Positions 405 to 63,058 are shown, counted from the first letter of the stretch. The stretch is 64,000 nucleotides of DNA from Candidatus Poribacteria bacterium (GCA_003635265.1 PYIZ01000009.1:22270-86269), one strand, 5' to 3'. Notes: generated by a model from the sequence alone, not told the origin. Numbers and translations: made by a program.

Positions 405-500
405 TCCCGCCTACAGACTTACGCATTTCAGCGCAGTTGGTGCGGAGCAAGTCCGGGGGGAACCTTCCGCAAGCGGAATCCCGATGAATCGGGACGTGAC
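405..500. repeat. Divergent or rearranged member of the composite repeat / REP family between rpsP and the KH gene
   Basis: Contains CCCGCCTACAGACTTACGCA, the palindrome CCCGATGAATCGGGAC (478-493), and GATGCCCCGCTATAG, all modules seen in copies B-D. Confidence 0.5.
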
Positions 501-569
501 CAGGGATGCCCCGCTATAGTTGGCTGCGTAAGTGCTATTGATGTAAAACCGCGTATTTAGGGGGATCCC

Positions 570-2546: not shown

Positions 2547-3156
2547 AGAGAACTATCCAGCGGAGGTACAACAGTTTGAACAAACCCTACGACAGCAGGG
2601 CTATCAGCGTATCGCAGGAATTGACGAGGCTGGGCGAGGAGCATTAGCCGGTCCTGTTGTCGCAGCAGCTGTTATTCTTCCTATCAACTGTCAGATTTCA
2701 GGTATGACAGATTCAAAACAGCTGACCCCCAAACGGCGGGTTGAATTGTTCGACGAGATCCATCACACAGCCGTAGGGGTTGGTGTGGGTCGTGTTGGGA
2801 ATGAGGAGATTGATCGGATTAATATCCTTCAAGCTACAATGGCTGCAATGGCTCAGGCTATTGCAGAGATCACGCCTGCCCCGGATTATGCGCTTATAGA
2901 TGGCACACATCTGCCTGAAATCTCTCTACCTGCCGAAGCGATTCCAAAGGGAGATACTCTTATCCAGTCTATTGCTGCTGCTTCAATTATCGCGAAAGTC
3001 ACGCGAGATCACCTGATGATTGAACTCGATGAAACCTATCCGGGCTACAGTTTCCAAGTCCACAAAGGATACGGCACACTTGTGCATCGTCAAGCAATTG
3101 CCCAACTCGGTCCCTGCCCTATCCACCGACGTAGTTTTAAGCTTCAGTCAAAATGA
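2380..3156 (+). CDS. rnhB: Ribonuclease HII (start codon uncertain)
   Basis: [21 protein letters not shown] and [10 protein letters not shown] motifs. The annotated ORF begins at 2311 inside rplS. The catalytic domain begins about 2590. There is no canonical start between 2547 and 2590, so the start may overlap rplS (ATG 2380) or use an atypical codon. Confidence 0.8.
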
Positions 3157-3533
3157 GCGACTCCAGAATTAAGGTAGGAAAGATCGGTGAAACCCTTGCC
3201 ATTGAGCATTTCAAAGCGCAAGGATATGAAATTCGCGCACGGAACTACCGCACGCGTTCAGGTGAGATTGATCTCATTGTTCAGCGTGGAAAACGGGTTG
3301 TGTTTGTTGAAGTCAAGACGCGTCGGAGCAGCAAATTTGGCCTACCACAAGCGGCTGTTACTCCTGCCAAACAGAGGCAAGTATCCAAGATTGCGCTGAG
3401 TTATCTGCAAAGGCACAACCTCCTAGATGTTCCCTGCCAATTCGACGTTGTTGCAATTGTCCTGTCTTGGAAATTTGAGCTAATCAAACTTCAGCACATT
3501 GAAAATGCGTTTGAATTCTACGCCAACGGTTGA
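3153..3533 (+). CDS. YraN-family (UPF0102) endonuclease-like protein
   Basis: 126 aa. GETLAIEHFKAQGYEI...GEIDLIV...VVFVEVKTRR is the YraN pattern. Conserved neighbour of rnhB. Confidence 0.8.
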   Translation: MSDSRIKVGKIGETLAIEHFKAQGYEIRARNYRTRSGEIDLIVQRGKRVVFVEVKTRRSSKFGLPQAAVTPAKQRQVSKIALSYLQRHNLLDVPCQFDVVAIVLSWKFELIKLQHIENAFEFYANG

Positions 3534-3604
3534 TAAACATCCACGCAATTGCATCAATTTTTACTGGATTCTGTATCGTATTTTATAATAGCAGTTTGGG
3601 AAAG

Positions 3605-4501
3605 TTACTTCGCATCTAAACTGGATAGCATATTCCGAAGATAAACAGCATCCTCTTTTGCCCACTGCTCCAGATTCGGCGGTGTGGTCTCGGCATACCC
3701 CACCTGACGAATAATTGATTCATCGAAGCGGTACTCCGTATGCACCGTTAGGGGTCCATCAAAACCGCTTTCGCACAGAAGTCCCAAATAACGCCTCCAA
3801 TCAACACCCCCATCACCCAGCTTTACAAAACAGGGAACATAAGGGGGAGTATGATCGGGCTGCGAGAGGTAGAGGGAATCTTTGATTCCAATAACGGACA
3901 GATAATCTCCGATCATCGCTAGCCCCATCGCCCAATCCTCGCCATCAAGCAGGAGATGTCCGGGATCGGGGTAGGCGCCGATGTGCTGTGGATCGAAACC
4001 TCTAATAAGATGCATCAGTCCTGCACAGTTTGATCCGATACAGGCACCGCTGTGGATCTGGTAACAGGTTTGTATCCCATATTTCTCACTAAATGCACTA
4101 AACCCCTCAAGCTCCCGGCGTGCAGCATCAATCACTTGCCAATAATCGTCTCCTTCGTTAAACCGCCAGAATCCGATTTTGAGGCGCGGGATGCCTGCTT
4201 CTGCACACGCTGCATATAATCCTTCTACCTCCGGCGCATTCGGATTTGTTATATCTGTCGCCGCTGTTGCCAACGGACAGGTGAGGTTCTGTCTCGCCCA
4301 AACTTTCATCGCTTTGGGGAGTGCCTCGACAACGTTATCGACGTGGATAGGGTGTCCGGGACGGACGCAGATATCTACCCCATCGTAGCCGAGTTCGATA
4401 GCTTTCTCGCCAAGTTGTTCGACAGATAGCTCCGTAAAGAACTTAGAATTTAGTACGATTTCCATGTAGAGTTCCTCCAATAGTTTATGGTATAAGGCCA
4501 T
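3605..4501 (-). CDS. Sugar phosphate isomerase/epimerase (xylose-isomerase-like TIM barrel)
   Basis: 298 aa. ELGYDGVD...FWRFNEGDDYW...HTEY are TIM-barrel AP-endonuclease-2 / xylose-isomerase-like motifs. Confidence 0.7.
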   Translation of the reverse strand: MALYHKLLEELYMEIVLNSKFFTELSVEQLGEKAIELGYDGVDICVRPGHPIHVDNVVEALPKAMKVWARQNLTCPLATAATDITNPNAPEVEGLYAACAEAGIPRLKIGFWRFNEGDDYWQVIDAARRELEGFSAFSEKYGIQTCYQIHSGACIGSNCAGLMHLIRGFDPQHIGAYPDPGHLLLDGEDWAMGLAMIGDYLSVIGIKDSLYLSQPDHTPPYVPCFVKLGDGGVDWRRYLGLLCESGFDGPLTVHTEYRFDESIIRQVGYAETTPPNLEQWAKEDAVYLRNMLSSLDAK

Positions 4502-6076
4502 CTAGTCGCGATTGAAATGCTTGCCGGGCAGATACTTGATCTCCAACTCGACATCGCGGACGTAACACTGAGGGGTTACATCAGGATCGCGCAGCAGCAG
4601 TGTGACTTCGAAGACGTTCTCACCTGTTTGGGGCCAGTGGCTAGGGTCAAGACGGTAAACGAACCAATAGCCTGAACCGGTGCGGTAACGTGGTGCACGC
4701 ATACGGTACATCTCGTTGATTTTTCGCAGTAGATGTGCCGGTAACTCTACGCCGTTGAGTTGAAAACGCAGTTGGTCGTTTTCGGTGGTGTTCATGATTC
4801 GGACCCGTAAGAGAACCTCGTGCACCCTGCCCACGTGCGCCCACCGGGGAAGGTCGTCGCTAATCGTTAGCGCTAACTGAACAGGTACGTGCACAGCCAA
4901 GTCAGCGGGCAGTTGCGATGTGAGTTCCGGACTCGAAAAGCGACCGGCTACTGTGGGGATATGATAGAATTTATCCTTGGGTGCCATAATGTCGGGATGG
5001 GGCAACTCTCGGAGTTTTTCATAGAATGAGGCATCATAGGGCCAGTTCGTGAACCACTGACTGATATAAAGTCCGTCAATGCCTTGTGCCCAGTAGTTGC
5101 AAGCCGCAGCACGAATCATTTCAATCGACGCTTCGCCCAAGCGGTCAGAGTCTACATTGCTGTCGATAGCGGCGTGAATGCGGCACTTTGTCCCTTTGGC
5201 AGACTCTACCAAGGAACAGAGATCGTCAAGGAGGGGTGCTTCATAGGTCAAGGAAGTACCGTTTGGATCCCGCAACTCAGGTCTTGCGAGTGCTTGAGCG
5301 ATGAGAACATCCACGATGCCTTGCCGCATCCATTCCTGTGGATCCAAACCACGGGACAGACAAGTCTCGACATTCGACGGGATGCTAATTGCCAATTCTC
5401 GCTCGGAGCCACTTCGTTTTACCGCCTCATAGACCTGTTCAACCCACTCGGTCATGATTTGACGCCCCTTGTCCACTTCATCTGGGTGGAAGTAGTGGGG
5501 CCAGAAATTGAACTGGAGCTCGAATCCATCGACCTCATAATTGGTGAGCACCTCTGAGATGAGTGCGAATCGTTCATCACGGACGGCTTGGTGCATGAAA
5601 TCAGCGCAGTGGATACCCGGGAAACTAGGGTCTAAGTTACCCTTTGCGCCGATCTCTAGATGCTTGTTATCCAATCGAAAATCCGAGCTGCGAATATCGT
5701 ATCCGCCTCCCCCTCGCTCGCCGCTCTCCAGCTGCATCAGCAGTGTAGGGTAGAACAGTAACCCCACATCATGGGCGCGATCACAGATTATCCGCAAGGG
5801 ATCGTTGCCCTCTTGGATCAGATGCAGCGCATTTTGGTATGTCCGACGAAAGATAAGATGGTTCCATTTTTGGACATTATGCCCCCACAGCTCGCCAACC
5901 TCTGTATCGTGTAGGACGGTCCGCCCATCTCCCAAGCAAAACATCAGTGCCTCGACAGGAGTACCAGCTAGCTCATCAACTGCTGCCTCGCACTCCTCCT
6001 TCTGCATCGCGGGTTCGTACATGTAGAGAAGCGGATGGCGTCCATCGTGGTAGAACATGATACGTGGCTTTCGCAT
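4502..6076 (-). CDS. Hypothetical 524-aa cytoplasmic protein, possibly a glycoside-hydrolase-like TIM barrel; co-transcribed with the isomerase (0-bp gap)
   Basis: Long ORF with uniform coding texture, no signal peptide, no recognisable catalytic motif. Functional call is inference from context. Confidence 0.35.
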   Translation of the reverse strand: MRKPRIMFYHDGRHPLLYMYEPAMQKEECEAAVDELAGTPVEALMFCLGDGRTVLHDTEVGELWGHNVQKWNHLIFRRTYQNALHLIQEGNDPLRIICDRAHDVGLLFYPTLLMQLESGERGGGGYDIRSSDFRLDNKHLEIGAKGNLDPSFPGIHCADFMHQAVRDERFALISEVLTNYEVDGFELQFNFWPHYFHPDEVDKGRQIMTEWVEQVYEAVKRSGSERELAISIPSNVETCLSRGLDPQEWMRQGIVDVLIAQALARPELRDPNGTSLTYEAPLLDDLCSLVESAKGTKCRIHAAIDSNVDSDRLGEASIEMIRAAACNYWAQGIDGLYISQWFTNWPYDASFYEKLRELPHPDIMAPKDKFYHIPTVAGRFSSPELTSQLPADLAVHVPVQLALTISDDLPRWAHVGRVHEVLLRVRIMNTTENDQLRFQLNGVELPAHLLRKINEMYRMRAPRYRTGSGYWFVYRLDPSHWPQTGENVFEVTLLLRDPDVTPQCYVRDVELEIKYLPGKHFNRD

Positions 6077-10046: not shown

Positions 10047-10111
10047 AGAATCTCCTTATTTTTTTAAATGAGTGGCTCGTGTAAAAATAGAGTGCAACTA
10101 CGGTGAAGGGG

Positions 10112-11005
10112 TTGAGAGCCTGTTTTAAAAGTCATTTGATACGGTTTTGCATCAAGTAAATGGAAGCAATGTACACCATCGCTTCAGCGGTTTCGGCAGA
10201 GCGTTCATAGTCCAAAGTCAATCGGCGAAACCGACCGAACCAAGAAAAGGTGCGTTCCACAATCCAACGTAATGGAACGACCACAAATCCCGATTGCCTA
10301 AGAGATGGGGCAATGTCCAATTGACACTGATGCGCCATATATAACCAGTCGCCTAATTTTCCACGATAGCCAGCATCGGCGCAGACTAACTGAATCGTTA
10401 TGTGCCACCTAAAGATTTCTGTTAATAACTCTATTGCGACTTGGTTATCACTGATATTTGCATCAGTGACCTTCACCCGCAATGGAATGCCAATTGTATC
10501 GGTGACTATGTGGCGTTTACGACCTTTGACTTTCTTATGTGCATCAAAGCCGCGAGTATCTGCCAGTTCGGTCGTTTTAACGGATTGGCTGTCAATGATA
10601 GCTACTGTCGGTGAAGGTGCTTTGCCAATATCACAACGGATTTGCTCGTGAAGTGCTTGATGAATCATAAGCCATGTGCCATCAGTTTTCCATTTTCTGA
10701 AATGGAAGTAGACCGTTTGCCATGGCGGCATCTGATGCGGGAGCATTCGCCATTGACACCCTGATTTGACTATATAAAAGATAGCGTTGATAATTGCACG
10801 CATCTTCCACTTGAGAGGTCTACCTACCGGCGAAGGTTTTGGCAGATAAGGTAACAGTCGGCACCATTGGGCATCCGTCAAATCCGTGGGATAGTTTGTT
10901 TGGGTCATGTTTATGCCTTTCATTGGAGTTGGATTCACTGCTCCAATGATTGAACGTAAACATTAACTCTTGAGTAGAAGTTTTCTTTTTAAAACAGGTT
11001 CTGAG
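10112..11005 (-). mobile_element. IS5-family insertion sequence (about 0.9 kb, single transposase ORF), apparently intact
   Basis: Imperfect terminal inverted repeats GAGAGCCTGTTTTAAAAG (10114-10131) and CTTTTTAAAACAGGTTCTGAG (10986-11005). They flank a 268-aa DDE transposase. Confidence 0.8.
10132..10938 (-). CDS. IS5/IS1031-group DDE transposase
   Basis: LTDAQWCRLLPYLP...GRPLKW...RAIINAIFYIVKSGCQWRMLP is the hallmark N-terminus of IS5-family transposases. DDE region ...ADAGY.... Confidence 0.85.
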   Translation of the reverse strand: MNPTPMKGINMTQTNYPTDLTDAQWCRLLPYLPKPSPVGRPLKWKMRAIINAIFYIVKSGCQWRMLPHQMPPWQTVYFHFRKWKTDGTWLMIHQALHEQIRCDIGKAPSPTVAIIDSQSVKTTELADTRGFDAHKKVKGRKRHIVTDTIGIPLRVKVTDANISDNQVAIELLTEIFRWHITIQLVCADAGYRGKLGDWLYMAHQCQLDIAPSLRQSGFVVVPLRWIVERTFSWFGRFRRLTLDYERSAETAEAMVYIASIYLMQNRIK

Positions 11006-11135
11006 GGCGGGGCAAGATGCCCCGCCTACGATGGGTTTGGAGTCTGAACATGTCCCTCGACGCCCGATGAATCCCCGACTTATCGGGACGGGCGGGCAAC
11101 TACAAACTGAACTGCGTAACTCCTATACTATTAGG
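11004..11135. repeat. Composite intergenic repeat, copy B (3' portion), abutting the IS right end and carrying an inserted REP unit
   Basis: GCGGGGCAAGATGCCCCGCCTACGATGG...CTGAACATGTCCCTCGAC...CGATGAATCCCCGACTTATCGGGACGGGCGGGCAA...CTACAAACTGAACTGCGTAACTCCTAT. A weaker 5' remnant (GCAACTACGGTGAAGGGG) is at 10085-10111 on the other side of the IS. Confidence 0.7.
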
Positions 11136-12402
11136 ATTTTCTGAGTTTTCCGTTCGCGTCGGGCAAGGGAGACTGTGGATGCATCGCTCGTGCTCTTGCC
11201 CGGAAGTCTAGCCCTTTTTCACCGAGTGCTTGCAACTCCTCTGGGCTGCCGTCAAACCATTCCTTCAGTCGTCGGCGGGCGATGTGGACGTGCAACACCT
11301 CGTCTGCCCAGTCGAAATCCTGAAGGGTTGTCATCAGGGGATGGCGAGCGGTATCGCGACAAAACTCGAATTCCTCACGCTTGCCGGGTGGGTATTTCAT
11401 GAGGCCTGCTTCGACACCGAAAAGCATGGCGTATAACTCCAAGGGATCCATCTTAAAGAGATAGGCAGACTCCCAATCGCGTATTGGCATCGCGGAACGT
11501 TCATCGAAGATATCCTCTGCCGCTGCCTCGCCAAAGACAGAATGGCGCATCTCGTCCCAGAGGTGACGGGAAATATCGGCATAGAACTCCCACGGCTGGT
11601 CTTTCATTTCGTACAGCACAAATCCCAACGCTTCGGCAATTGTGGTTTCTCCGAGACGGGTTGCAATCATCTGCATCAATCGCTCCTCCACCCGCTCGTT
11701 ATCAACGTGGATAATATCCCACACACGCGGAAAGGTATCATCACGGGTAAGTTGTTTTGGAATCAGATATGGGGTTGTTGATCGAACGGGGTGGAGTGTA
11801 TCAAGATTCACTTCGCCTGTACCATCAATGCCTCCGGCAGCCTCAAGCAAGTTGTGGAGCGTCGCACTCCAAGCCTTTGCTTCCGATTCTTTTTCCGGCG
11901 TATCGACAACGTCGTCATAAGCGGTTTCTAGTAGGCGCAGCCCTTCCTCTACTTCGGCGATGACGGTTTTCAGGACGCGCACGGTGGGATAGTCCGCCAA
12001 ACCGTTGGTTGTATTGACATACCTTTGATATGCTTCCAAAAGCGCAGGTTTGAATACCTTTGTCAATCCCGCTAGCAGTTCGGCGGTATTCGCCGCGTGC
12101 ATCGCTTCATCGAAAACGATTTGCAAGAAAGCATCAGGAGCTTGATACGCTTTTGTCTTGGAAACGCGCAGCTCGGGCAATCGGACTTTGAATTGAGACG
12201 CATATTGTGAGTCTTCGTATTGTAGTCTCGCTAGCAATACTTTGACATCTCGCTCCGGTGTGCTGATGATATGGGCAGCTTGCAGAAACATTAATCGTTC
12301 TGCTGCGTAGGCGAATCGATGGATTCGGGCGGCGCATTGATCAACGCTGAATCCCTGCCGTGTTGCATTCTGCAAGCCTGCGTATTGATAGGTTCGATTC
12401 AT
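11131..12402 (-). CDS. Hypothetical protein with ferritin-like diiron signatures (putative oxygenase)
   Basis: 423 aa with three ExxH motifs (EAMH, DEMRH, DEVLH). No other recognisable family motif. The diiron assignment is inference. Confidence 0.35.
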   Translation of the reverse strand: MNRTYQYAGLQNATRQGFSVDQCAARIHRFAYAAERLMFLQAAHIISTPERDVKVLLARLQYEDSQYASQFKVRLPELRVSKTKAYQAPDAFLQIVFDEAMHAANTAELLAGLTKVFKPALLEAYQRYVNTTNGLADYPTVRVLKTVIAEVEEGLRLLETAYDDVVDTPEKESEAKAWSATLHNLLEAAGGIDGTGEVNLDTLHPVRSTTPYLIPKQLTRDDTFPRVWDIIHVDNERVEERLMQMIATRLGETTIAEALGFVLYEMKDQPWEFYADISRHLWDEMRHSVFGEAAAEDIFDERSAMPIRDWESAYLFKMDPLELYAMLFGVEAGLMKYPPGKREEFEFCRDTARHPLMTTLQDFDWADEVLHVHIARRRLKEWFDGSPEELQALGEKGLDFRARARAMHPQSPLPDANGKLRKS

Positions 12403-25355: not shown

Positions 25356-26207
25356 TTGGATCCCGATGAAATCGGGGCGAAAATTATTGATGGGAAAGAG
25401 CTAGCTAGATCTGTTCGGCGCAAGATTCGGCGCCAAGTGAAGAAACTCAAATTTACCCCCGGACTTGCGGTGGTCCAAGTTGGAGATGATCCCGCTTCGA
25501 CCGTCTATGTCAGCAACAAGGAGAAGGATTGTCAGTATGTCGGCTTTCATTCGGAGGTACATCGAATGCCGGCGGAAACGCCGCAAGCAGCGGTCATAGA
25601 ACAAATTCACACGCTGAACAGTCGTGAGGATATACACGGAATTATTGCTCAAATGCCGGTGCCTGATTCTATTGATGGGGATACTATTATCAACGCGATC
25701 ATGCCTGAAAAGGACGCCGACGGTCTGACGCTTGTGAACTTAGGTAACCTCCTGATTAACCGTGAACAGACTGTTCCGTGCACGCCAGCAGGAATTATCC
25801 GTCTCATTGAATCGACTGGCGTAGGGATTGAAGGGAGCCGCGTCGTTTGTGTGGGTCGCAGCAGTCTGGTTGGCAAACCTGTTGGGTTGATGCTGCTCAA
25901 CCGCAATGCGACGGTCACCTACTGCCACACGAGGACTCGTGAACTTTTCTCGGAAACGCAACAAGCGGACATTCTGATTGCAGCAGTTGGCAGACCTCGG
26001 TTAATTACGGCAGGCATGGTAAAACCGGGGGCGGTCGTGATTGATGTGGGAATTACTATTACTGAAGATGGCTTTGTTGGTGATGTTGATTATGAGAGTG
26101 TCGAGGAGGTCGCCGGTTTTATCACACCTGTTCCCGGCGGTGTTGGACCGATGACACGTGCAATGTTGTTAGAAAACACATTAGAATTAGCTTTGGCTCG
26201 AAAATAG
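25356..26207 (+). CDS. folD: Bifunctional methylenetetrahydrofolate dehydrogenase / methenyl-THF cyclohydrolase
   Basis: KIIDGKELA...GLAVVQVGDDPASTVYV...PGGVGPMT are FolD signatures. The ORF opens at 25287, but homology begins at about 25380. A TTG at 25356 is the plausible start. Confidence 0.85.
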   Translation: MDPDEIGAKIIDGKELARSVRRKIRRQVKKLKFTPGLAVVQVGDDPASTVYVSNKEKDCQYVGFHSEVHRMPAETPQAAVIEQIHTLNSREDIHGIIAQMPVPDSIDGDTIINAIMPEKDADGLTLVNLGNLLINREQTVPCTPAGIIRLIESTGVGIEGSRVVCVGRSSLVGKPVGLMLLNRNATVTYCHTRTRELFSETQQADILIAAVGRPRLITAGMVKPGAVVIDVGITITEDGFVGDVDYESVEEVAGFITPVPGGVGPMTRAMLLENTLELALARK

Positions 26208-31745: not shown

Positions 31746-32843
31746 TTACGTCTCATAAACCACACCTAGCTTAATGCTCTTCTCCGGTGCTTCATCGATG
31801 TCACGATAGGCTTCTGCCGACTCATCAAACGGGACAATTGGGTGAACCAAGCCTTCGACCGAAAGACGCCCCTCCTGCAACAGTGCGAATACCTCTGTAT
31901 GCAGCCGCGGGGTGTCCCACAAAGGGTGACCGGGGACGGGTTGGCTCACATCACGGGTCGAAATCATCGTCAACCGATTTCGATGCCATTCCCCTTCAAG
32001 ACTTAATGCGCGGGCATCTCCTGTGTAATACGCCGAGGACACGATGGTGCCCATGTAACCTGTCGCTCGCAGCGCATCGTTCAATGCACCATAAATGCCA
32101 CTTGTTTCTAGGGAGACATCAACGCCAACTTTGTCTGTTAGGTCTTTGATAACCAGTCCAGCGTCATCGGCAATTGGATCGATGACTACATCTGCTCCGT
32201 GCTGCTTAGCGAGCTCACGGCGGACCGGAATCGGGTCGGTTGCAGCAACCCACCGTGCCCCTTGAAGCCGTGCAATCTGCACTGCCATCTGTCCAATTGC
32301 GCCAAGCCCAAACACCGCCACACGATCGCCGAGACCGATTTTGGCATCCCGCACCGGACTGAGTGCGACACCTGCGGGATCTGAATACACGATAGCTTCG
32401 GCTGACATCTTATCCGGGGCTTCGTCTAAACGTTCTTCGTGGACGGTGTGTGTTTCGCGGATAGGCAGATGTCCGAAAACACGATCCCCTATCTGGAAAC
32501 GTGTGACGCCTTCGCCGACTTCAATCACTTCGCCGACCGTCATGTTACCTAGCCGTGACGGGAATTTCGGGGGACCCCCTTCTCCGCCCCCGATTTCATC
32601 GGGATTGAGAGCAACATGCATCCGTCGTTCCCACTCAAAAGGGGAGGTGTGATCCTTCGTTTCAGCGCGATAGCCGCGAAGCTCCGATCCGTGCTTGGGA
32701 GCGGAAAAGATACTTCGTAGCCGCACTTCTCCGGGGTTAAGCGACGGCTCCTCGTATTCACGAAGCACAGGTGTCCGTGGTGCAACAGCAATGAGTTCTC
32801 TGGGCATTTTTGAATCCTTTTGAATTGTGTCAAAGCACGCCAC
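31746..32843 (-). CDS. Zinc-dependent medium-chain alcohol dehydrogenase / MDR-family oxidoreductase
   Basis: GHE-like zinc region (VFGHLP) and Rossmann VFGLGAIGQMAVQIARLQGA. About 350 aa. Confidence 0.75.
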   Translation of the reverse strand: MACFDTIQKDSKMPRELIAVAPRTPVLREYEEPSLNPGEVRLRSIFSAPKHGSELRGYRAETKDHTSPFEWERRMHVALNPDEIGGGEGGPPKFPSRLGNMTVGEVIEVGEGVTRFQIGDRVFGHLPIRETHTVHEERLDEAPDKMSAEAIVYSDPAGVALSPVRDAKIGLGDRVAVFGLGAIGQMAVQIARLQGARWVAATDPIPVRRELAKQHGADVVIDPIADDAGLVIKDLTDKVGVDVSLETSGIYGALNDALRATGYMGTIVSSAYYTGDARALSLEGEWHRNRLTMISTRDVSQPVPGHPLWDTPRLHTEVFALLQEGRLSVEGLVHPIVPFDESAEAYRDIDEAPEKSIKLGVVYET

Positions 32844-34499: not shown

Positions 34500-34795
34500 A
34501 GAGCGTGAAACGTGATGCCCCGATAAATCCCCGATAAATCGGGACAGGCGGGACAGGCTGTAAAATCCCGTTCCGAGGATCTCCCGATTTCATCGAGGAT
34601 TCTCGGCAAAGCCGGAACCGATCCATCGGGACGTGACAACATTGGTTTATTGAGGCAGCGGCAAGGAACAACGATCCTCCGGTCTGTGACCGAGAGTCCG
34701 ATCCCGATTTTTCCCGATTCTCGGGATCCTCGATGAAATCGGGACAAGGACTCCGATGAATCGGAGGAGTTGTTCCCTACGGTTTTTTAACATGA
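34500..34795. repeat. Cluster of REP-like palindromes (CCCGAT-NN-ATCGGGAC units) arranged as a MITE-like 200-bp imperfect palindrome
   Basis: Tandem CCCGATAAAT CCCCGATAAATCGGGAC at 34515-34550. Perfect 19-bp inverted repeat TCCCGATTTCATCGAGGAT (34582-34600) / ATCCTCGATGAAATCGGGA (34726-34744). Outer GGAACAAC / GTTGTTCC arms. Confidence 0.7.
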
Positions 34796-35118: not shown

Positions 35119-35152
35119 TTCTCAGATGAGGAAGCGATAAGTAGATTTTAGT

Positions 35153-35310
35153 TAGAACTTACGCAGCTGAACGGTGAGATGTCGTAATTCAATGTTTCAT
35201 CGCCAATGCGGGGCAAGATGCCCCGCCTACGATGGTTGTGGATTCTGAACATACCCTTCGACACCCAATGAATTGCGCTACTACAAACTCAAGTGCGTAA
35301 GTCCTATTAG
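35153..35310. repeat. Composite intergenic repeat, copy C (full length)
   Basis: AGAACTTACGCAGCTGAACGGTGAG...CATCGCCAATGCGGGGCAAGATGCCCCGCCTACGATGG...CTGAACAT...CTACAAACTCAAGTGCGTAAGTCCTAT. Contains the hairpin GCGGGGCAAGATGCCCCGC. Confidence 0.8.
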
Positions 35311-35392
35311 TGATATTTATGTCTTTCGACAAAGAAATTGTGGATACCTATAGTGGTTCTGGAGATCGAGGCTGCCACAGGAATCCTTGGAA

Positions 35393-38294: not shown

Positions 38295-38321
38295 CACTTT
38301 TCGGTTAGGTTCATATAAAAA

Positions 38322-38385
38322 GAAAGTGCAAAACGATAAGACCGTGAAACGTGAAAACTATTGGTTCATTAGTTCATTTACAGGA
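38322..38385 (+). repeat. Conserved 60-bp leader motif, copy 1 (AAAGAAAGTGCAAAACGA...CGTGAAACGTGAAAAC...TTGGTTCATTAGTT)
   Basis: Near-identical to 41467-41525. Related cores at 57135-57180, 62171-62230 and 34503-34517. Immediately upstream of the cupin gene RBS. Confidence 0.7.
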
Positions 38386-40359: not shown

Positions 40360-41454
40360 ATGCGATCCAGCGACTCTAAAATTTCCACCACATTTCAGAA
40401 TCCCAACACCCGTTTCGGCGTGATCGGTATTATCGGAGCAGCCATCATCCTCCTAGCGATGGTACTTGGGCTACAGGTTATTGAAGAGACTGGGGTGATT
40501 GATCCCTTCCTCCAACAGTGGAAACAAGCTGTCGAATCCAAGCAACCGAGATTATATCAACAGTTATGGGATTCGACCGCACGAACCAAAAACCGGAATC
40601 AGTATGAACGCGCATTGAAACTCTTCAGCAGAGAAAAGGTTGAAGCGGATATAACTGGACATCTTGCTCAGAAAGATCTCGGGAACACGAATCGACAACA
40701 GATTGAACGCATCCCTGTCACGCTCTACCAAGATGGTAAGGTTTTAGTGGTAATCTATCGGGACATAACTGTTGAAAAGAGGGGACTTTTACAACGCTGG
40801 AAACTGATAGACGATAAAATTCACGATGAGTTAGGATATCCCGAAACCACCGAGGAGTATATCGTTCAAGATCAAGAGATGGTCGCTCAATCTGCCAATC
40901 CAACGCCCGAAAGTCGTTCGTTGCAGCCCGTTGATGCTCCAATGCCTTCCAATAACGTTGTTACATCGCCTCAAGCCGCTGCGCCCAAAAGTTCCTCGCC
41001 GATTGTCGGTGAGGCACCGCTTGATACCCAGCTTAAATTGAGCCAAGTTTTGGGGGAATGGCAGCAGGCTTGGCAGGGAAAGAATCTTACAATCTATATG
41101 TCGAAGTATGCCGAAGACGCAGTGATTACAAGGGTCGCTATTAACAGGGGACGAGAATATCCGACTCGGTTGGATAAAAAACAGTTGCGCGAGAAAATGA
41201 AAGCTCTTAATGAAAGGTATAGCAAAATTAAAGTGAATATTTTTCAGTTGCAAATCCACGGAGATAGTGCGGTAGCTGATGTCAATTTCTTACAAGAATT
41301 TGTTGGTACTCGCGCCTCTGGAAGTCAACCTGTTTACTCAGATTTCGGCAAGAAAGAATTGGTTTTTATGGTGGATCCTGCCGATGGCGTCTGGAAGATC
41401 TATGCTGAGAGTTGGAGACATTATAAAAACGTCCCCAAGTATCCGAAACTTTAA
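40360..41454 (+). CDS. Membrane-anchored paralog, with a C-terminal NTF2/SnoaL-like domain
   Basis: One N-terminal TM helix (FGVIGIIGAAIILLAMVLGL) and a Pro/Ser-rich linker. C-terminal domain LGEWQQAWQGKNLTIYMSKYAED...WKIYAESWRHYKNVPKYP matches the WKIFRESWRIYEAVPRYG of the upstream protein. Confidence 0.5.
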   Translation: MRSSDSKISTTFQNPNTRFGVIGIIGAAIILLAMVLGLQVIEETGVIDPFLQQWKQAVESKQPRLYQQLWDSTARTKNRNQYERALKLFSREKVEADITGHLAQKDLGNTNRQQIERIPVTLYQDGKVLVVIYRDITVEKRGLLQRWKLIDDKIHDELGYPETTEEYIVQDQEMVAQSANPTPESRSLQPVDAPMPSNNVVTSPQAAAPKSSSPIVGEAPLDTQLKLSQVLGEWQQAWQGKNLTIYMSKYAEDAVITRVAINRGREYPTRLDKKQLREKMKALNERYSKIKVNIFQLQIHGDSAVADVNFLQEFVGTRASGSQPVYSDFGKKELVFMVDPADGVWKIYAESWRHYKNVPKYPKL

Positions 41455-41466
41455 GGTTCATGTCAA

Positions 41467-41525
41467 AAGAAAGTGTAAAATGCAAAGCGCGTGAAACGTG
41501 AAAAGCATTTGTTCATTAGTTTGTT
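41467..41525 (+). repeat. Conserved 60-bp leader motif, copy 2
   Basis: AAAGAAAGTGTAAAATGCAAAGCGCGTGAAACGTGAAAAGCATTTGTTCATTAGTT. Directly after the stop of the paralog gene and upstream of the lipoprotein gene. Confidence 0.7.
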
Positions 41526-41734
41526 GGCAGTAAGAAGCAATGATCGTTGTTCACTACCGTTTCTGTTGTATAATTTTTTAACTTGAGCCAACTTAAATCA
41601 TCATTTTGGATTAAATTACTATCACCGATTGACTGAAACCGCGCATTCATCTATGCGTTTTTGTTATTGGATAAATCTTGGCAGCCCATTTTGGCTGAAT
41701 ACACCCAAAATTTCAACCTACAAGGACAAGAACG

Positions 41735-55387: not shown

Positions 55388-55609
55388 ATGGATATGGGCG
55401 CAACAGCCGACCTCGCATTTTTGGGGCTAGTAATCTCATTAGTCTTTTATATTGTTCTTTTTTGGGTGCTTATACGATTCATTCGCGCAGTGGAAAAGAT
55501 CGCAGACAACTTCTGGTCAATTGCGAGGGCACATACACGTTCTGTTGACGCGATCGAAAAAGTTGCAAACAGGATTGAGAGAATCGCAGACAACGAGAAC
55601 ACCAGATAA
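55388..55609 (+). CDS. Small membrane protein (73 aa) between murE and murF
   Basis: One TM helix (LAFLGLVISLVFYIVLFWVLI) followed by a charged helix with internal repeat IEKVANRIERIADNE / VEKIADNF. RBS GGAGG upstream. Confidence 0.35.
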   Translation: MDMGATADLAFLGLVISLVFYIVLFWVLIRFIRAVEKIADNFWSIARAHTRSVDAIEKVANRIERIADNENTR

Positions 55610-55704
55610 TAGAGGCAAATTGACCTGTTCAACCGCACCTACTATTATTATCCATTCCAGTAGGCTGGGCACAGGAAACAATTGCTCATACCCCACCCAT
55701 CATT

Positions 55705-57072
55705 ATGAACCTCACAATTGCTGAAATCCTACAGACAACGCAGGGTAACCTGATCCAAGGCAATCCCAACACCGTAATAACGCAGGTCTCGACAGACTCA
55801 CGGACACTCAAAAAGGGTGACCTCTTTGTCGCACTGGTCGGTGAAAAATTCGATGGACATAATTTCCTAGAGGGCGTGTGTCAGCAAGGTGCAATCGGGG
55901 CGGTTGTCTCGAAACCAGCAGCCGATGCCTCTCAACTTGTACCGCCGATTATTGTGCAAGTGAACGATACGCTCGCTGCGCTGGGGGATATTGCCAACCG
56001 TCATCGCAGCAAGTTCGATCTGCCGATAATCGCTATCACGGGCAGCAACGGCAAGACCACTACAAAGGACATAACAACTTCTGTGTTGGCACAGCGGTTT
56101 TCCGTTTTCAAATCTGAGAAAAGTTACAACAATCAGATTGGTATCCCCTCACGATTGATGCAACTCAGCAACGCTGATGAGATTGCCGTATTAGAGATTG
56201 GCACTAGTTGGCCCGGAGAGATTGAGCGGTTGTCGCAGATAACAGCGCCGACCGTCGGAGTGATTACCAATATTGGACCGGCACACTTGGAATTGTTAGG
56301 TTCACTTGAAGGGGTTACCGAGGAGAAAGGGGCGTTGCTAACGCATGTCGAACATGCCCTCCTTAACGCTGATGATCCGATGACGCCGAGGCTTGCTGGC
56401 CGTGTATGTGGTCAAATCACCACATTTGGTTGGCATAATGATGCGGATATTGCTGCAGGCGAAATTGAGATTGACAGTTTCGGCAAGCCTACGTTCACGT
56501 TGATAATCGATGGGGATGACATTGACAGGGTGCATTTACCTTGTCTGGGAAAACATAATATCTACAATGCTCTCGCTGCCGCTGGGGTAGGTATCTGGGC
56601 GGGCTTAATGCCTGCAGAAATTTGTGCTGGGCTAGAAGGTTTTCAGCCGGCGGACATGCGGATGCAGCCGACTGTGCACAACGACCTACGCATCATCAAC
56701 GACGCCTATAACTCAAACCCAGAGTCACTCAAGTCTGCTTTGGCATTTCTTAGCGATATCGAAATAGCTGGCAAGCGAATTGCAATCCTTGGTGATATGC
56801 TTGAACTTGGCGAACATTCTCACACACTCCACCTGAAAACAGGAGTGGCTATCCCAACCAACATCAACCTATTGATTACCGTTGGTCCCCATAGCCGCGC
56901 AATCGCTGAGGGAGCGGAAGGCATCGTTGAATCTATCATCTCCTGTGATACGCCAAAGCAAGCGGCACAAGAACTGATCCAATATGTTCAACCCGGTGAT
57001 GCGGTGCTTATCAAGGGGTCACGCGGGATAAAATTGGAGCAGGTTTTGGAAGAACTGATGCGTGAAACCTAG
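55705..57072 (+). CDS. murF: UDP-MurNAc-tripeptide:D-Ala-D-Ala ligase
   Basis: ITGSNGKTTTK P-loop and Mur ligase middle and C-terminal domains. 455 aa. Confidence 0.9.
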   Translation: MNLTIAEILQTTQGNLIQGNPNTVITQVSTDSRTLKKGDLFVALVGEKFDGHNFLEGVCQQGAIGAVVSKPAADASQLVPPIIVQVNDTLAALGDIANRHRSKFDLPIIAITGSNGKTTTKDITTSVLAQRFSVFKSEKSYNNQIGIPSRLMQLSNADEIAVLEIGTSWPGEIERLSQITAPTVGVITNIGPAHLELLGSLEGVTEEKGALLTHVEHALLNADDPMTPRLAGRVCGQITTFGWHNDADIAAGEIEIDSFGKPTFTLIIDGDDIDRVHLPCLGKHNIYNALAAAGVGIWAGLMPAEICAGLEGFQPADMRMQPTVHNDLRIINDAYNSNPESLKSALAFLSDIEIAGKRIAILGDMLELGEHSHTLHLKTGVAIPTNINLLITVGPHSRAIAEGAEGIVESIISCDTPKQAAQELIQYVQPGDAVLIKGSRGIKLEQVLEELMRET

Positions 57073-57134
57073 AGTTTGGCACCTAATCACCAATGGTGCT
57101 AGTTTACAACTGTTGATATGCTTGCCGGTCAAAG

Positions 57135-57180
57135 ACCGAAGGTGAAACGTAAAATGTGAAAATCGTTTGTTCATCAATTT
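57135..57180 (+). repeat. Leader motif family, copy 3 (GGTGAAACGTAAAATGTGAAAATCGTTTGTTCATCAATT)
   Basis: Shares the GTGAAAC-GT(G/A)AAAA core and the TTTGTTCAT box with the copies at 38322 and 41467. Lies in the unusual 340-bp murF-mraY gap. Confidence 0.6.
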
Positions 57181-57410
57181 ATGAATGAGCCAATGAATTG
57201 ACGAACTCTCCTAGTAATCAGGATTTTACTCCGCTCAACTTGAACGATATGGAAACAAGATCCCCACCAAATAGCACCAAAGGCTAATAGTTTGGGTAGG
57301 ATCAGGCTTGAAATTGTCGGTTAAGCGGAAGGAAGCAGTTGCTGTCTTTCCTTCCTCATTTCTCATTGCTTCCAATTTCCAAAGGATAAACCTTAAATCA
57401 AAAGTTACCC

Positions 57411-58514
57411 ATGCTCTACTATCTATTTTTTGAACAACTGACAGAGTTTTTTTCGCCGTTGAATGTTTTTCGTTATATTAGCTTTCGGTCCATCTATGCA
57501 ACAATAACCGCGCTACTTATAGCCCTCATCTTAGGCCCTTTCGTTATTCAACATCTGAGACGATTGAAAATCGGTCAGCATGTCCGCGATGATGGTCCCG
57601 AAACCCATTTCAGCAAAGAGGGTACGCCGACAATGGGTGGCGTACTGATTATCACGTCCGTGCTGATTTCAATTTTGTTGTGGGCGCGATTGGATCAGCC
57701 TTATATTTTTATCCTCACCTTTAGTATTCTGTGGTTTGGCGGACTCGGCTTTCTGGACGATTACCGGAAGATTACCAAACAACAATCACTTGGATTGAAG
57801 GGTTGGCATAAGCTCTTTTTACAAGCAGTCGGTGCACTTGCCATTGCCTACTTCCTCTACCAATGGGGACCCGTTCCCAAAGACAGCTTGACCGAGAGAA
57901 CATCAATTATCATTCCTTTCTTTAAGCAACTTCGCCCAGACCTCGGCGTATTCTTTATTCCATTTGCAGCGTTCGTCATTGTCAGTGCGTCCAACGCTGT
58001 TAATCTTACGGACGGGCTTGATGGTCTAGCAATCGGCTGTACGCTGTTTGTCGCAGCCACATTTGGTATATTAGGCTACCTTACAAGCCACCAACAGTTA
58101 GCAAATTACCTCGACATCGCCCACATTCCAGTTGGTGGAGAGGCTGCGACTATCTTCTGTGCTGCATTAATTGGAGCCGGTGTGGGTTTTCTATGGTATA
58201 ATTGTCACCCAGCACAGGTTTTCATGGGAGATACAGGTTCGTTAGCCCTTGGTGCAGTACTTGGAACAATTTCTATCTTAATCAAGGAAGAGATTCTACT
58301 TGTGATTGTTGGTGGAATTTTTGTGGCAGAAGTGCTCTCCGTTATCATCCAAGTTGTATCTTATAAAACACGAAAAAAACGGGTGTTCAGGATGTCACCA
58401 CTACATCACCATTTTGAACAGCTCGGTTGGCCCGAGCCGAAAGTTGTGCTGCGTTTCTGGATTATTGGATTGATTTTGATGCTCGTCGCACTGAGCACCC
58501 TCAAATTGCGATAA
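57411..58514 (+). CDS. mraY: Phospho-N-acetylmuramoyl-pentapeptide transferase
   Basis: 10 TM helices, with the DD (NLTDGLDGLA) and HHH (SPLHHHFE) motifs of MraY. Confidence 0.9.
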   Translation: MLYYLFFEQLTEFFSPLNVFRYISFRSIYATITALLIALILGPFVIQHLRRLKIGQHVRDDGPETHFSKEGTPTMGGVLIITSVLISILLWARLDQPYIFILTFSILWFGGLGFLDDYRKITKQQSLGLKGWHKLFLQAVGALAIAYFLYQWGPVPKDSLTERTSIIIPFFKQLRPDLGVFFIPFAAFVIVSASNAVNLTDGLDGLAIGCTLFVAATFGILGYLTSHQQLANYLDIAHIPVGGEAATIFCAALIGAGVGFLWYNCHPAQVFMGDTGSLALGAVLGTISILIKEEILLVIVGGIFVAEVLSVIIQVVSYKTRKKRVFRMSPLHHHFEQLGWPEPKVVLRFWIIGLILMLVALSTLKLR

Positions 58515-58589
58515 TGGGAAAAGGGGCAGGCAGAAAACGGCGAAGGTTCAATAATTAAAAATAGTTCAAATCTGTGTAAGGGGAAGACC

Positions 58590-59336
58590 ATGCGACTACA
58601 GAATAAGATTGCCCTCGTCACTGGTGGGGCAACCGGCATCGGTGCTGCTACAGCTATGATGTATGCAAGAGAGGGAGCAAAAGTCATCATTGCTGATCTG
58701 AATGAGGCAGATGGTAAGGCAACTGCACAATCTATTGAAGCAGAAGGCGGCACCGCCCAGTTTATACGGATCGATGTGTCTCAAGAGGCGGAGGTTGCTG
58801 CAATGGTGGAATCCGTCGAGCAGAAGTTTGGGAGGCTTGATGTGTTGGTGACCTGTGCTGGCATCCTGCTGGGTGCAGCGGTACGGATTGATCAATTTGA
58901 CGCAGAAGCGTGGGATGCCGTCATCAGGGTCAACTTGCGGGGGACCTTCCTGTGCACTAAACATGCTGTTCCACTGATGGAAAAGAGCGGCGGTGGGGTC
59001 ATTGTGCTGATAGCGTCGGGAGCAGGGGTGACGGGGCCCAGTGCCTCCGTCGCCTACGGTGCTAGCAAAGGCGGTGTGCGTGGGTTAGGATTTACGTTGA
59101 AGAATCAGGTTGAACCGTTAGGTATCCGCGTGCATGTCGTTTGTCCCGGTAACCTCAATACACCCCTGAAGCTCAGGGCGATCGCCGAAATTGCAGAGCG
59201 GGGTGGAGAATCACCGGAGGCGGCTGTTGCTGCCGCACAATCCACCCTGTTTAAGCCGGAGGAGGTCGCCAAGGTGCTGACAGATCTCGCTTCTGACGCG
59301 GGGGTAAATGCCGACGAACTGGTATTTACAAAGTGA
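58590..59336 (+). CDS. SDR-family oxidoreductase
   Basis: TGGATGIG and NAG-equivalent motifs, and a Y..xK triad (YGASK). Confidence 0.85.
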   Translation: MRLQNKIALVTGGATGIGAATAMMYAREGAKVIIADLNEADGKATAQSIEAEGGTAQFIRIDVSQEAEVAAMVESVEQKFGRLDVLVTCAGILLGAAVRIDQFDAEAWDAVIRVNLRGTFLCTKHAVPLMEKSGGGVIVLIASGAGVTGPSASVAYGASKGGVRGLGFTLKNQVEPLGIRVHVVCPGNLNTPLKLRAIAEIAERGGESPEAAVAAAQSTLFKPEEVAKVLTDLASDAGVNADELVFTK

Positions 59337-59364
59337 CCTGAACTGCTGTCTGTTTTCTATTCAT

Positions 59365-59525
59365 TAGAACTTACGCAGTTGAACGATGAGGTGTTGTAGT
59401 TCGATCCTTCATCGCCAATGCGGGGCAGGCTCCCCCGTCGACGATGGGTGTGGTGTCTGAAAATGTCTTTTGACGCGCAATGAATTGCGCGACTACAAAC
59501 TCAAGTGTGTAACTCCTAATTGGCT
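59365..59525. repeat. Composite intergenic repeat, copy D (full length)
   Basis: AGAACTTACGCAGTTGAACGATGAG...CATCGCCAATGCGGGGCAGGCTCCCCCGTCGACGATGG...CTGAAAAT...CTACAAACTCAAGTGTGTAACTCCTAAT. Co-linear with copy C, about 85% identity by eye. Confidence 0.8.
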
Positions 59526-59674
59526 TTCGTTGGCAGTAGCAACTCTCTATTCACTTTTCGTAAATTTTTGCTGCGAGGAAATAACTCTTTACATTTTCAG
59601 TAATTTTAGTATATAATGAGTGACACACTGCTGCGAGATAGAGCAGATGCAGCAGTAACGAAAAGAGAAGGCGG

Positions 59675-60250
59675 ATGGTTTTATCAGATCGGGATATTGT
59701 TCGTTATCAGGAAATGGGGAAAATCAAAATCACTCCTCCCCCGGATCTTACTAAACAACTCGGTTCCTGTTCCATCGATTTCCGGCTAGGGAATACCTTT
59801 CGGTTGTTTGAGCACAGTAAGTATCCCTATATCGATCTGCGCGAAGATATTGATCCTAACGAACTGATGCACAAGATGGAAGTCCCCGACGGTGAAGCGT
59901 TCACCATGCAGCCGGGAGAATTTGTGCTTGCGGCAACCCTCGAAACCCTCGAACTCGCCGACGATGTGATGGCACGGCTCGAAGGTCGTAGTAGCCTTGG
60001 CAGGCTTGGCATTATTGTCCACAGCACGGCGGGGCTTTTTGATCCGGGTTGGGTTGGGACTGCGACATTAGAACTAGGAAACTTGGGACGTATGCCAGTT
60101 AAACTCTACCCCGGTATGCGGATCTGTGCATTTACATTTGAAGAGTTATCCTCTCCTGCAAAAGTACCCTATCGTCGAAAACCGGGTAACAAATATGCAG
60201 GACAAGTTGAACCGGAAGCCAGTCGTTTTGTGCGGGATTTGAATCAATAA
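59675..60250 (+). CDS. dcd: dCTP deaminase
   Basis: MVLSDRDI...ITPPPD..QLGSCSIDFRLG...VHSTAGLFDPGWVG are dCTP deaminase/dUTPase-fold motifs. Confidence 0.85.
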   Translation: MVLSDRDIVRYQEMGKIKITPPPDLTKQLGSCSIDFRLGNTFRLFEHSKYPYIDLREDIDPNELMHKMEVPDGEAFTMQPGEFVLAATLETLELADDVMARLEGRSSLGRLGIIVHSTAGLFDPGWVGTATLELGNLGRMPVKLYPGMRICAFTFEELSSPAKVPYRRKPGNKYAGQVEPEASRFVRDLNQ

Positions 60251-60474
60251 ATAGTTGTATTGCTAAAAACTTTAGCAGTAATCTGCCCAATAATTCAGCA
60301 TCTATGGATTAAGGCATTTATATTGCACCACTAATTGTATACTAGAAGGATACCTCGCATAGTGAGATAATCAGGGGCAAACCGCCTATCAGAGCCAAGT
60401 CTCTGCTACAAATAAGAAAAAGACAAGATAGAGAAAAATTAGTGTAAGTTCTCATTTTGAAAGCGATTTGATTA

Positions 60475-60491
60475 TTGGCATATCGCTTGCT
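60475..60491 (+). promoter_or_regulatory. Candidate sigma54 (-24/-12) promoter upstream of glnA
   Basis: TGGCAT-ATCGC-TTGCT matches TGGCAC-N5-TTGC, with GG and GC spaced exactly 10 nt. About 200 bp upstream of the glnA ATG. Confidence 0.5.
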
Positions 60492-60688
60492 CTATATCTT
60501 TGAGGTGTTCCGTTTTCAAATTCCATAGTTTCCAATAATTTGTTGAGTAGGGTGTATGAAAAGTGGTACAAATGTCTTCTGTTGGGAGGCTGCTCATAGG
60601 CGTTCCTGATGAGCCCGCTAGGTAATGCCAACCCTACTTCGTTTAACCGTCATTGCTTGGCTCAATATTTTAATTAAGGAGATTTTAG

Positions 60689-62131
60689 ATGACACCAAGT
60701 GAAGTCGTTGCGCTTGCAAAAGAAAAAGAGGTCAAAATTGTTGACTTTAAATTCACGGATCTGCCTGGCATGTGGCACCACTTTTCGATTCCCGCAACAG
60801 AGTTAGAGGAAGACCTGTTTGAAGATGGACTCGGTTTTGATGGTTCAAGTATTCGTGGTTTCCAAGCGATTAACGAAAGCGACATGCTCCTTTTCCCGGA
60901 TCCGGATACAACCATTGTGGATCCGGTTTGCAAAATTCCGACCCTCAGTCTTATTTGCAACATTAAGGATCCAATTACCCTAGAAAGCTATAGTCGAGAT
61001 GTGCGGCATATCGCTCAAAAGGCGGAAGCGTATCTCAAGAGCACTGGAATTGCGGATACGAGCTATTGGGGACCTGAAGCTGAATTTTTTATTTTCAACG
61101 ATGTTCGTTATTACCAAAATCAGCATTCGGCCTTTTATTCCGTTGATTCTGTTGAAGGCAGCTGGAATACAGGTAAAGGGAGTTGGAATCCAAACACAGG
61201 CGACTATGACGCGCCGAACCTCGGATACAAACCGCGTTACAAGGAAGGGTATTTCCCCGTACCGCCATCGGATACACTGCAAGATATTCGATCTGAAATG
61301 ATTCTCAAGATGATCGATTGCGGGGTTGATGTAGAGGTTCACCACCATGAGGTCGGCACCGGTGGTCAGGGTGAGATCGATCTCCGGTTTGATACCATGA
61401 CCACGATAGGCGATAAGCTGGCGCTGTACAAGTACATCATCAAGAATACAGCCCGTGCCCACAACATGACGGCGACCTTTATGCCAAAGCCACTTTTTGA
61501 AGACAACGGCTCAGGCATGCACTGTCATCAAAGTTTATGGAAGGATGGGAAAAACATCTTCTACGATCCGCAGGGATATGCCGGGTTAAGCGAAACCGCG
61601 TTGTATTACGCCGGTGGTCTCCTTAAACATCTACCGTCGCTGTGCGCTATCATTGCACCGACAACCAATTCTTACAAGCGGTTGGTCCCGGGCTATGAGG
61701 CACCGGTGAATCTTGCATATTCGCAACGAAACCGGAGCGCATGTGTCCGTATTCCTGTATACTCTCAGAGTGAGAGAGCGAAACGACTGGAACTCCGTAC
61801 ACCAGATCCTTCCTGTAACGCATATCTCGCCTTTAGCGCAATGCTGATGGCGGGTCTTGACGGTATCCGGAATCAGATTCACCCCGGTGAACCGCTTGAT
61901 AAAGACCTGTACGATCTGGAGCCAGAGGAACTGGCAGAAATTGAATCAACGCCGGGCTCCTTAGCTGAGGCACTTGATGCCTTAGAGGACGACCATGACT
62001 ACCTGCTCGAAGGCGATGTGATCACGCAGGACGTGATTGATACATGGATAGAGTATAAACGTGAAAACGAAGTCGATGCAGTCAACCTCCGTCCGCATCC
62101 ACACGAATTTCATCTCTACTATGATATTTAA
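60689..62131 (+). CDS. glnA: Glutamine synthetase type I
   Basis: 480 aa, with the GSI beta-grasp and catalytic motifs ([25 protein letters not shown] adenylylation-region residues). Confidence 0.9.
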
Positions 62132-62170
62132 TTGGTTGAATTTCATTTTCAGTTGTAGATAACAATGAGA

Positions 62171-62230
62171 GTAAAGCGTAAAACGTAAACTGTTAAGTAG
62201 GTTTCCTACGTTTCTACGCTTTACTAAAAT
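62171..62230 (+). repeat. Leader motif family, copy 4, with an internal palindrome GTAAAGCGTA...TACGCTTTAC
   Basis: GAGTAAAGCGTAAAACGTAAACTGTTAAGTAGGTTTCCTACGTTTCTACGCTTTACTAAAATC, directly upstream of glnB. Confidence 0.6.
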
Positions 62231-62280
62231 CACAGGGTTGAGGGGTTGTGAGCATCACTGTTTCAATAAAGGAGAAATAA

Positions 62281-62622
<342 letters not shown>

Positions 62623-62679
62623 ACGCAAACCTCAATTCAAATAACAATGCAATTGTAGGGGGCAACTTCTTGATCAGAG

Positions 62680-62699
62680 AGGGGTCGTCCCCTATATTT
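62680..62699 (+). terminator. Weak hairpin after glnB (AGGGG-TCGT-CCCCT then ATATTTG)
   Basis: 5-bp GC stem with a 4-nt loop and an AT-rich tail. Marginal as an intrinsic terminator. Confidence 0.3.
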
Positions 62700-63058
62700 G
62701 TGCCCATCGCGGCAATTCATTACTGGACCATCACTTTTATTTCCTTTCCGAAATTACAGAACATCTCCTTCTCCACCTCCGCAGATCCTACCTCATTTCA
62801 AGTTGCTGAGATCCGTAATCATAGAGGCGGTTGGGAAACCCAACCGCCTAGGAAGGATCGTGCTTCTGTGCACACCCCTTGATTATCTGGTTGTGATGAA
62901 ATATCAATAGAACCTCGCCACTGAAAATCCATCGGATTATTGGTAAAGTTGATTTCAACCTTTTGCTCCAAAGGAGCGTTATGTATATAGAAACAGAATA
63001 CGACATACAACTGCGCTCCAGAGGAGCGCAATATGTATAGCAAATACCCAATTTTTGC

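Follow-up and report, generated by a model that had tools for sequence, protein, structure and literature searches.

The IS1031 group of the IS5 family (ISfinder classification) comprises elements of 850-1050 bp with a single ORF, a 3-bp TNA duplication and GAG ends. Tobes and Pareja are said to have described in 2006 IS elements targeting REP sequences, IS1397, ISKpn1 and others. The Microcystis aeruginosa genome reportedly carries annotated MITEs that share their termini with autonomous IS elements. ISAba11 makes a 5-bp duplication. It belongs to the IS701 family (PMC9771954).

We analysed a 64,000-nt stretch of DNA from Candidatus Poribacteria, called the window here, in which an IS5-family element lies beside a broken copy of a dispersed repeat (Table 1). 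Our reading, to which we give a probability of about 0.85, is that three separate events shaped the intergenic region between a 423-aa ORF and a TPP-enzyme gene: insertion of a MITE, a deletion between two hairpin copies and insertion of the IS.

Both components can be compared with described systems. The IS shares with the IS1031-like group of the IS5 family a size of about 0.9 kb, one DDE transposase (DUF4096 plus DDE_Tnp_1), short inverted repeats starting with GAG or GAA, and a 3-bp TNA duplication. Its 886 bp, one ORF, TGA/TAA/TTA duplications and GAG/GAA ends all match the group features, and by these features the IS would fit the IS1031 group. Like the REP-targeting elements IS1397 and ISKpn1, the IS lies 0-2 nt from a hairpin in the window and in loci L010 and L120, which suggested a preference for hairpin-adjacent targets; unlike them, six further copies have no adjacent hairpin, and this preference was rejected. 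The repeat resembles the Microcystis aeruginosa MITEs and the Correia elements of Neisseria in being 100-250 nt long and non-coding, with terminal inverted repeats (TIRs), a duplication of fixed length, many intergenic copies and a long-hairpin fold. Unlike in those elements, its termini match an IS701-family element with 5-bp duplications, and its interior is modular, with palindromic 14-19-nt units that vary in number and type and often contain smaller nested units. Palindromic units of 14-20 nt in intergenic mosaics are likewise found in REP/BIME, REPINs and pneumococcal BOX, but in Poribacteria such units are enclosed by TIRs of transposon type, with target duplications. The putative autonomous partner of the repeat is similar to short ISAba11-like IS701 members in its size (about 1.04 kb), its single transposase of about 330 aa and its 5-bp duplication; unlike ISAba11, it is known only from Poribacteria MAGs.

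Table 1. Features of the IS, its flanks and the dispersed repeat (positions in the window).
Feature	Position	Strand	Basis or remark
Copy A, divergent short-subfamily member of the MITE family	412-537	+	TIR, central GGGGCA..TGCCCC hairpin, TIR; extra material inside hairpin
5' region of TPP-enzyme gene, unique DNA, not a repeat module	10047-10112		Collinear with L118, partly with L119 and L120
Target-site duplication TGA, left copy	10113-10115		Single TGA in GGGGTTGAGGGCGGGG at the IS-free site of L118
IS5-family insertion sequence, complete	10116-11001	-	Ends defined by inverted repeats; agree with independent copies in L010, L120 and L125-L130
Terminal inverted repeat beside transposase stop codon, GAGCCTGTTTTAAAAG	10116-10131		Ends kept in 8 other copies
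Transposase ORF	10132-10938	-	Start probably ATG at 10908 (258 aa); GTG at 10938 would give 268 aa
Terminal inverted repeat upstream of transposase start, CTTTTTAAAACAGGTTC region	10986-11001		Ends kept in 8 other copies
Target-site duplication TGA, right copy	11002-11004		Single TGA at the IS-free site of L118
Hairpin module GCGGGGCAAGATGCCCCGC, inferred deletion crossover site	11007-11025		Comparison with L118; in other contexts at 22 places
Copy B, 3' MITE remnant of the 154-nt subfamily, without the 55-nt 5' half	11007-11125	+	Alignment to copies C and D
Nested 20-nt hairpin unit CCCCGACTTATCGGGACGGG, the 'REP unit'	11073-11092	+	Inside GCCCGATGAAT/CGGGC hairpin of copy B; copy B only
TACTA, surviving right copy of the MITE 5-bp duplication	11126-11130		Directly after stop codon of 423-aa ORF (11131-11133)
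Copy C, full-length MITE, 154 nt	35153-35306	+	5-bp duplication TTAGT at 35148-35152 and 35307-35311
Copy D, full-length MITE, 154 nt	59365-59518	+	Without intact target duplication

The IS is intact. Its 886 bp encode the transposase on the minus strand and end in inverted repeats, GAGCCTGTTTTAAAA from 10116 and GAACCTGTTTTAAAA (reverse complement) ending at 11001, which match at 14 of 15 positions. The original prediction had set these repeats at 10114-10131 and 10986-11005, which is about right except that both spans take in part of the 3-bp duplication. A target-site duplication had been called for, and TGA is perfectly repeated on the two sides of the 886-bp unit. The transposase matches the NCBIfam model transpos_IS5_3 over model positions 1-257 of 258 with 230 bits (cutoff 110), and the Pfam families DUF4096 and DDE_Tnp_1 with 97.9 and 95.2 bits. 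Because its ORF is uninterrupted and the transpos_IS5_3 match nearly full-length, no frameshift was overlooked, and the earlier call of an intact IS5-family element holds.

Further copies, which the original prediction had proposed to look for, bring the number to nine in five assemblies (the window, L010, L120 and L125-L130), with lengths of 886-887 bp. The 3-bp duplication is perfect in 9/9 copies (TCA, TAA in five, TTA in three), and the context, C-TNA-G, is the only consistent feature of the target. The copies in L010 and L120 are independent of that in the window (87% and 88% identical), and those in L010, L120 and L125-L130 are all 887 bp long. The copy in L127 is nested in an IS3-family element and that in L129 lies beside a solo IS end. 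At L130 1100-3040, an IS5-family copy is inserted exactly in the terminal TTAGG of an IS701-family element with the duplication TTA, so the MITE/IS701 termini themselves offer a C/T-TNA-G target.

The IS is multicopy and recently active in the Poribacteria lineage. Four GenBank entries (RKU07795.1, RKU09267.1, RKU09339.1 and RKU10735.1) are identical to its 258-aa transposase, which is on record from 7 contigs; two of the names listed for it bear the locus-tag prefix C6502. An 884-bp TARA scaffold (L001) consists of the IS alone, equal to window positions 10119-11002 at 99.9%, and such an IS-only scaffold is the usual signature of a collapsed repeat. Recent activity, which had been proposed from the open reading frame, follows from the identical transposase on 7 contigs and from the 99.9% IS-only scaffold. 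Sister transposase clusters at 88-90% identity have hundreds of members. When exact proteins were looked up, the 258-aa form was the only one found; the 268-aa and 263-aa forms and the products of both neighbouring genes were not on record. Transposase identity of 99% was seen only with Poribacteria MAG proteins annotated 'IS5/IS1182 family transposase', and the closest matches outside the ENA, NCBI and Logan sources were at most 64% identical. A 25-nt IS-end pattern had 0 matches in the JGI metagenomes, where a protein-based scan for the transposase gave only relatives of 32-49% identity; the IS appears to be absent from this collection. We know of no named ISfinder entry for the IS. It is already annotated in GenBank at the protein level and is an ordinary element.

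To the right of the IS lies part of the dispersed repeat. Window positions 11007-11072 match copies C and D at 88% and 80%, and copies C and D are 83% identical to each other. Thus the IS is bounded on its right by the 3' two-thirds of a repeat, as had been proposed; the two full-length copies are real, and the junction does lack the CATCGCCAAT segment. Copy A is comparable to short MITE copies in L026, L097 and L102. A 25-nt motif from the 3' end of the repeat occurs 3 times in the window and in 0 of 100 shuffles.

We scanned one genome per species with this 3' motif and fetched at least 116 stretches, about 0.97 Mb. Among the matches listed (116), every stretch came from a Candidatus Poribacteria MAG. 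The 18-nt terminal motif TAGGAsTTACGCAGTTGA has 319 matches in the approximately 0.97 Mb fetched, among the matches listed. Paired in inverted orientation, they delimit elements whose lengths peak at 139, 185 and 209 nt; the subfamily in the window is 154 nt long. Identical 5-bp flanks were found in 47 of 120 distinct elements, compared with 0.6 expected by permutation, again among the matches listed. A 1041-bp element at L075 5926-6966 has the same termini and a 5-bp duplication, ACATT, and its 331-aa ORF scores 397 bits on NCBIfam transpos_IS701_2; further copies of this IS701-family element with MITE termini are present in L104 and L130. The repeat is a MITE family, because it has TIRs and 5-bp target duplications, is found at filled and unfilled sites and shares its termini with an IS701-family element. 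Judging from the shared termini, the MITE is presumably mobilised in trans by an IS701-family transposase. No IS701 transposase was found in the 64,000-nt window.

On folding, copy C gives a single long hairpin (z = -4.8). The MITE interior is a patchwork of palindromic hairpin modules, among them GCCCGATGAATCGGGC, GGGCGATTTATCGCCC, GCGCAATGAATTGCGC and GCGGGGCAAGATGCCCCGC, which explains why the repeat had been described as multi-module. Rfam gave 0 matches at gathering score anywhere in the window, and a literature search for Poribacteria MITEs found no paper. The family is highly abundant, restricted to Poribacteria among the matches listed, and unusually modular in its interior. The region 55565-62705, which includes copy D, is syntenic with L007 (OZ242315.1) at 87-89% identity. 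The L007 element at the copy D position has the same 3' end but differs in its internal modules and lacks a recognisable 5' TIR. This would mean either an exchange of modules on the spot or a second insertion at the site.

The neighbouring genes gave access to orthologous loci. The 423-aa protein (11131-12402, minus strand) is conserved and has no Pfam or NCBIfam hit. It has more than 500 homologs at E <= 1e-30, with 60-68% identity in Chloroflexota/Anaerolineae MAGs, and a few homologs are labelled 'bacterioferritin (cytochrome b1)' at JGI. Loci L118, L119 and L120 were found via its homologs; in the orthologous loci fetched, the 423-aa gene lies between a PfkB-family kinase gene and the TPP-enzyme gene. 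In L118, a long-read metagenome contig, the orthologous TPP-enzyme gene (3134-4769) is called as two ORFs of 353 and 173 aa, probably a sequencing frameshift rather than a pseudogene.

L118 is from a related metagenome contig, and its 423-aa protein is 91% identical to that in the window. There is no IS at the locus. The region upstream of its TPP-enzyme gene is collinear with window positions 10047-10115 and continues at the IS-free site (...GGTGAAGGGGTTGAGGGCGGGGCAAGATGCCCCGCCTACG...) through a single TGA straight into a stand-alone GCGGGGCAAGATGCCCCGC hairpin. This stand-alone module is followed by a spacer of about 115 nt and then by a full MITE, which contains an internal hairpin copy and is flanked as TACTG[MITE]TACTA. 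Alignment of the window with L118 leaves a gap of about 205 nt with matching sequence to its left and right, and the gap edges are two copies of the 24-nt hairpin module. L118 has two copies of the module, one stand-alone and one inside the MITE; in the window there is a single, hybrid copy. L118 is only about 90% related to the window and serves as a proxy for the ancestral state, not as the true pre-insertion allele.

L119 has neither the IS nor the MITE, and its spacer is 143 nt long. In L120 the MITE site is unfilled (GAATACTATTG), whereas in the window and L118 it is filled at TACTR. Within L120 5275-6575 the same IS family (88% identical) has inserted independently, using another target, TAA, and the opposite orientation. 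Between the 423-aa ORF and the TPP-enzyme gene there is possibly a local IS hot spot.

The left flank of the IS, predicted to resemble weakly the 5' module of the repeat, leads to the TPP-enzyme gene, whose start codon is at 10046 on the minus strand; the IS lies 69 nt upstream of it. When positions 10047-10115 were aligned locally with nine 5' modules of the 154-nt subfamily, 453/500 shuffles scored equally high or higher; the resemblance is not above chance. In the comparison with 116 family members no match was better than a 13-mer, which 4/300 shuffles and 17/447 genomic windows also attained. We also considered and rejected an internal CAACTACAGTAAGG module in this flank: the 13-mer is marginal (2/200 and 4/300 shuffles), and the module is unneeded, the flank being ordinary upstream DNA in L118. 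A weak promoter-like site at 10085-10058 is a consensus match only.

From these comparisons a history of the locus can be proposed. A 154-nt MITE entered the TACTA site, 5 nt beyond the 423-aa stop codon, with a 5-bp duplication. About 205 nt were probably then lost between two direct copies of the 24-nt hairpin module (GCGGGGCAAGATGCCCCGCCTACG), one stand-alone near the TPP-enzyme gene and one inside the MITE; we favour deletion between these copies because the edges of the gap relative to L118 are the two hairpin copies themselves. Such a deletion, driven by homology or by slippage, would have removed the spacer and the 5' half of the MITE, including CATCGCCAAT. The 886-bp IS entered at a TGA that lies 2 nt before the surviving hairpin, with duplication of this TGA, and was probably moved by its own transposase through DDE cut-and-paste or copy-out. 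The deletion and the IS insertion may have occurred in either order; a deletion that preceded the IS or was independent of it would give an IS-free allele GGGGTTGAGGGCGGGGCAAG...ACGATGGGTTTGGAG.

The original prediction offered two other readings, in which the IS had either inserted into a repeat copy or captured it. Had the IS landed inside an intact composite repeat, it would have split a degenerate 5' module on the left from the 3' two-thirds on the right, which would suit its position within 5 nt of the point where homology begins. The short string ACGGTGA is shared, and TAGA...GCA..CT in 10088-10106 loosely recalls the 5' TIR. However, the similarity of the left flank is at chance level, no TACTA duplication partner lies left of the IS, and in L118 the same flank joins the stand-alone hairpin without the IS, with the true 5' half of the MITE more than 100 nt further on. 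We consider an insertion into the repeat very improbable. Capture, by which the IS and the repeat fragment would form one larger mobile unit (a capture, composite or transporter element), fares even worse and is scarcely credible. Physical adjacency is all that speaks for it, whereas only the 886-bp IS lies between the duplicated TGAs, the flanks of eight other copies, all likewise 887 bp long, are unrelated, and the repeat fragment lies at the orthologous position beside the 423-aa ORF in L118.

A somewhat better but still unlikely alternative is that the IS itself truncated the MITE, by an adjacent deletion through intramolecular transposition or by IS-IS recombination, and that the two TGA copies are a coincidence. 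The IS is multicopy, it lies 5 nt from the homology breakpoint, and a TNA-specific IS gives matching trinucleotides by chance in about 25% of cases. This chance of about 1 in 4 that a TNA matches on both sides, if the junctions are independent, is why the IS-free allele in L118, and not the target duplication alone, carries the argument. In L118 the junction of left flank, TGA, GG and hairpin is intact and IS-free, with nothing adjacent to either IS end missing, and the deletion endpoints fall, as expected of a repeat-mediated deletion, inside the 24-nt direct repeat on the right-hand side of the IS. On the three-event reading, the position of the IS beside a broken repeat is a coincidence, an IS insertion adjoining a hairpin at the edge of an independent repeat-mediated deletion.

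Copy B contains an extra hairpin unit absent from copies C and D, which the original prediction took as a sign that the repeat modules recombine. The unit is confined to copy B as described, but recombination was not borne out. In the Poribacteria loci there are 43 nested units of two types (20 and 24 nt), and 30 of them lie at one hairpin position, between GAT(G/A)AAT and CGGG(C/A) inside the hairpin. This distribution points to the extra unit having nested at a specific site and not to recombination among modules. In L118 the orthologous MITE has no 20-nt unit and shows a tandem duplication of a 23-nt hairpin unit instead; since the orthologous MITEs of the window and L118 differ in their micro-units, these micro-events are recent. 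We tentatively raise, as a possibility we would not bet on, a hierarchy of mobile hairpins nested one within the other. The 20-nt and 24-nt units (CCCCGAT..ATCGGGAC(A/G)GG and CCCCGAT..ATCGGGATTAAGAAA) would insert precisely between GAT(G/A)AAT and CGGG, inside 14-16-nt hairpins that are themselves modules of the IS701-type MITE. If mobile, the micro-units might be moved by a RAYT or an IS200/IS605-like Y1 transposase, or arise by a template-switching process.

Hairpin units of the form CCCGAT..ATCGGG are also found outside the MITE copies, at 34518-34560, 25362-25376, 32589-32603 and 480-493. Near 34518-34560 a unit sits within a second one, CCCCGATAAAT[CCCCGATAAATCGGGACAGG]CGGGACAGGC; this suggests that hairpins like itself serve as targets for the 20-nt unit. 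A second intergenic repeat is present at 38307-38383 and 41454-41530 (81% identical), with AAAAGAAAGTGCAAAAC and GTGAAACGTGAAAA motifs, and a related 22-mer occurs at 34494, 38333 and 41480. Similar AAAGAAAGTG(C/T)A strings lie beside MITE copies in several Poribacteria loci (e.g. L038, L056, L079, L086). This second repeat may represent a motif for a promoter or operator, or else a further family of repeats.

The IS insertion is in itself routine. It documents an active IS5-family element in Poribacteria, an uncultivated phylum of sponge symbionts, and the same intergenic region was struck twice independently by the same IS family, in the window and in L120. The more useful by-product is the repeat, an abundant MITE family with an identifiable IS701-family partner. 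MITEs of this type fragment MAG assemblies and can seed deletions, as here, and they are usable as strain-level markers for the population genetics of the symbionts. If the nested hairpins are truly mobile, the micro-units would be among the smallest site-specific mobile DNAs known, continually remodelling the MITEs.
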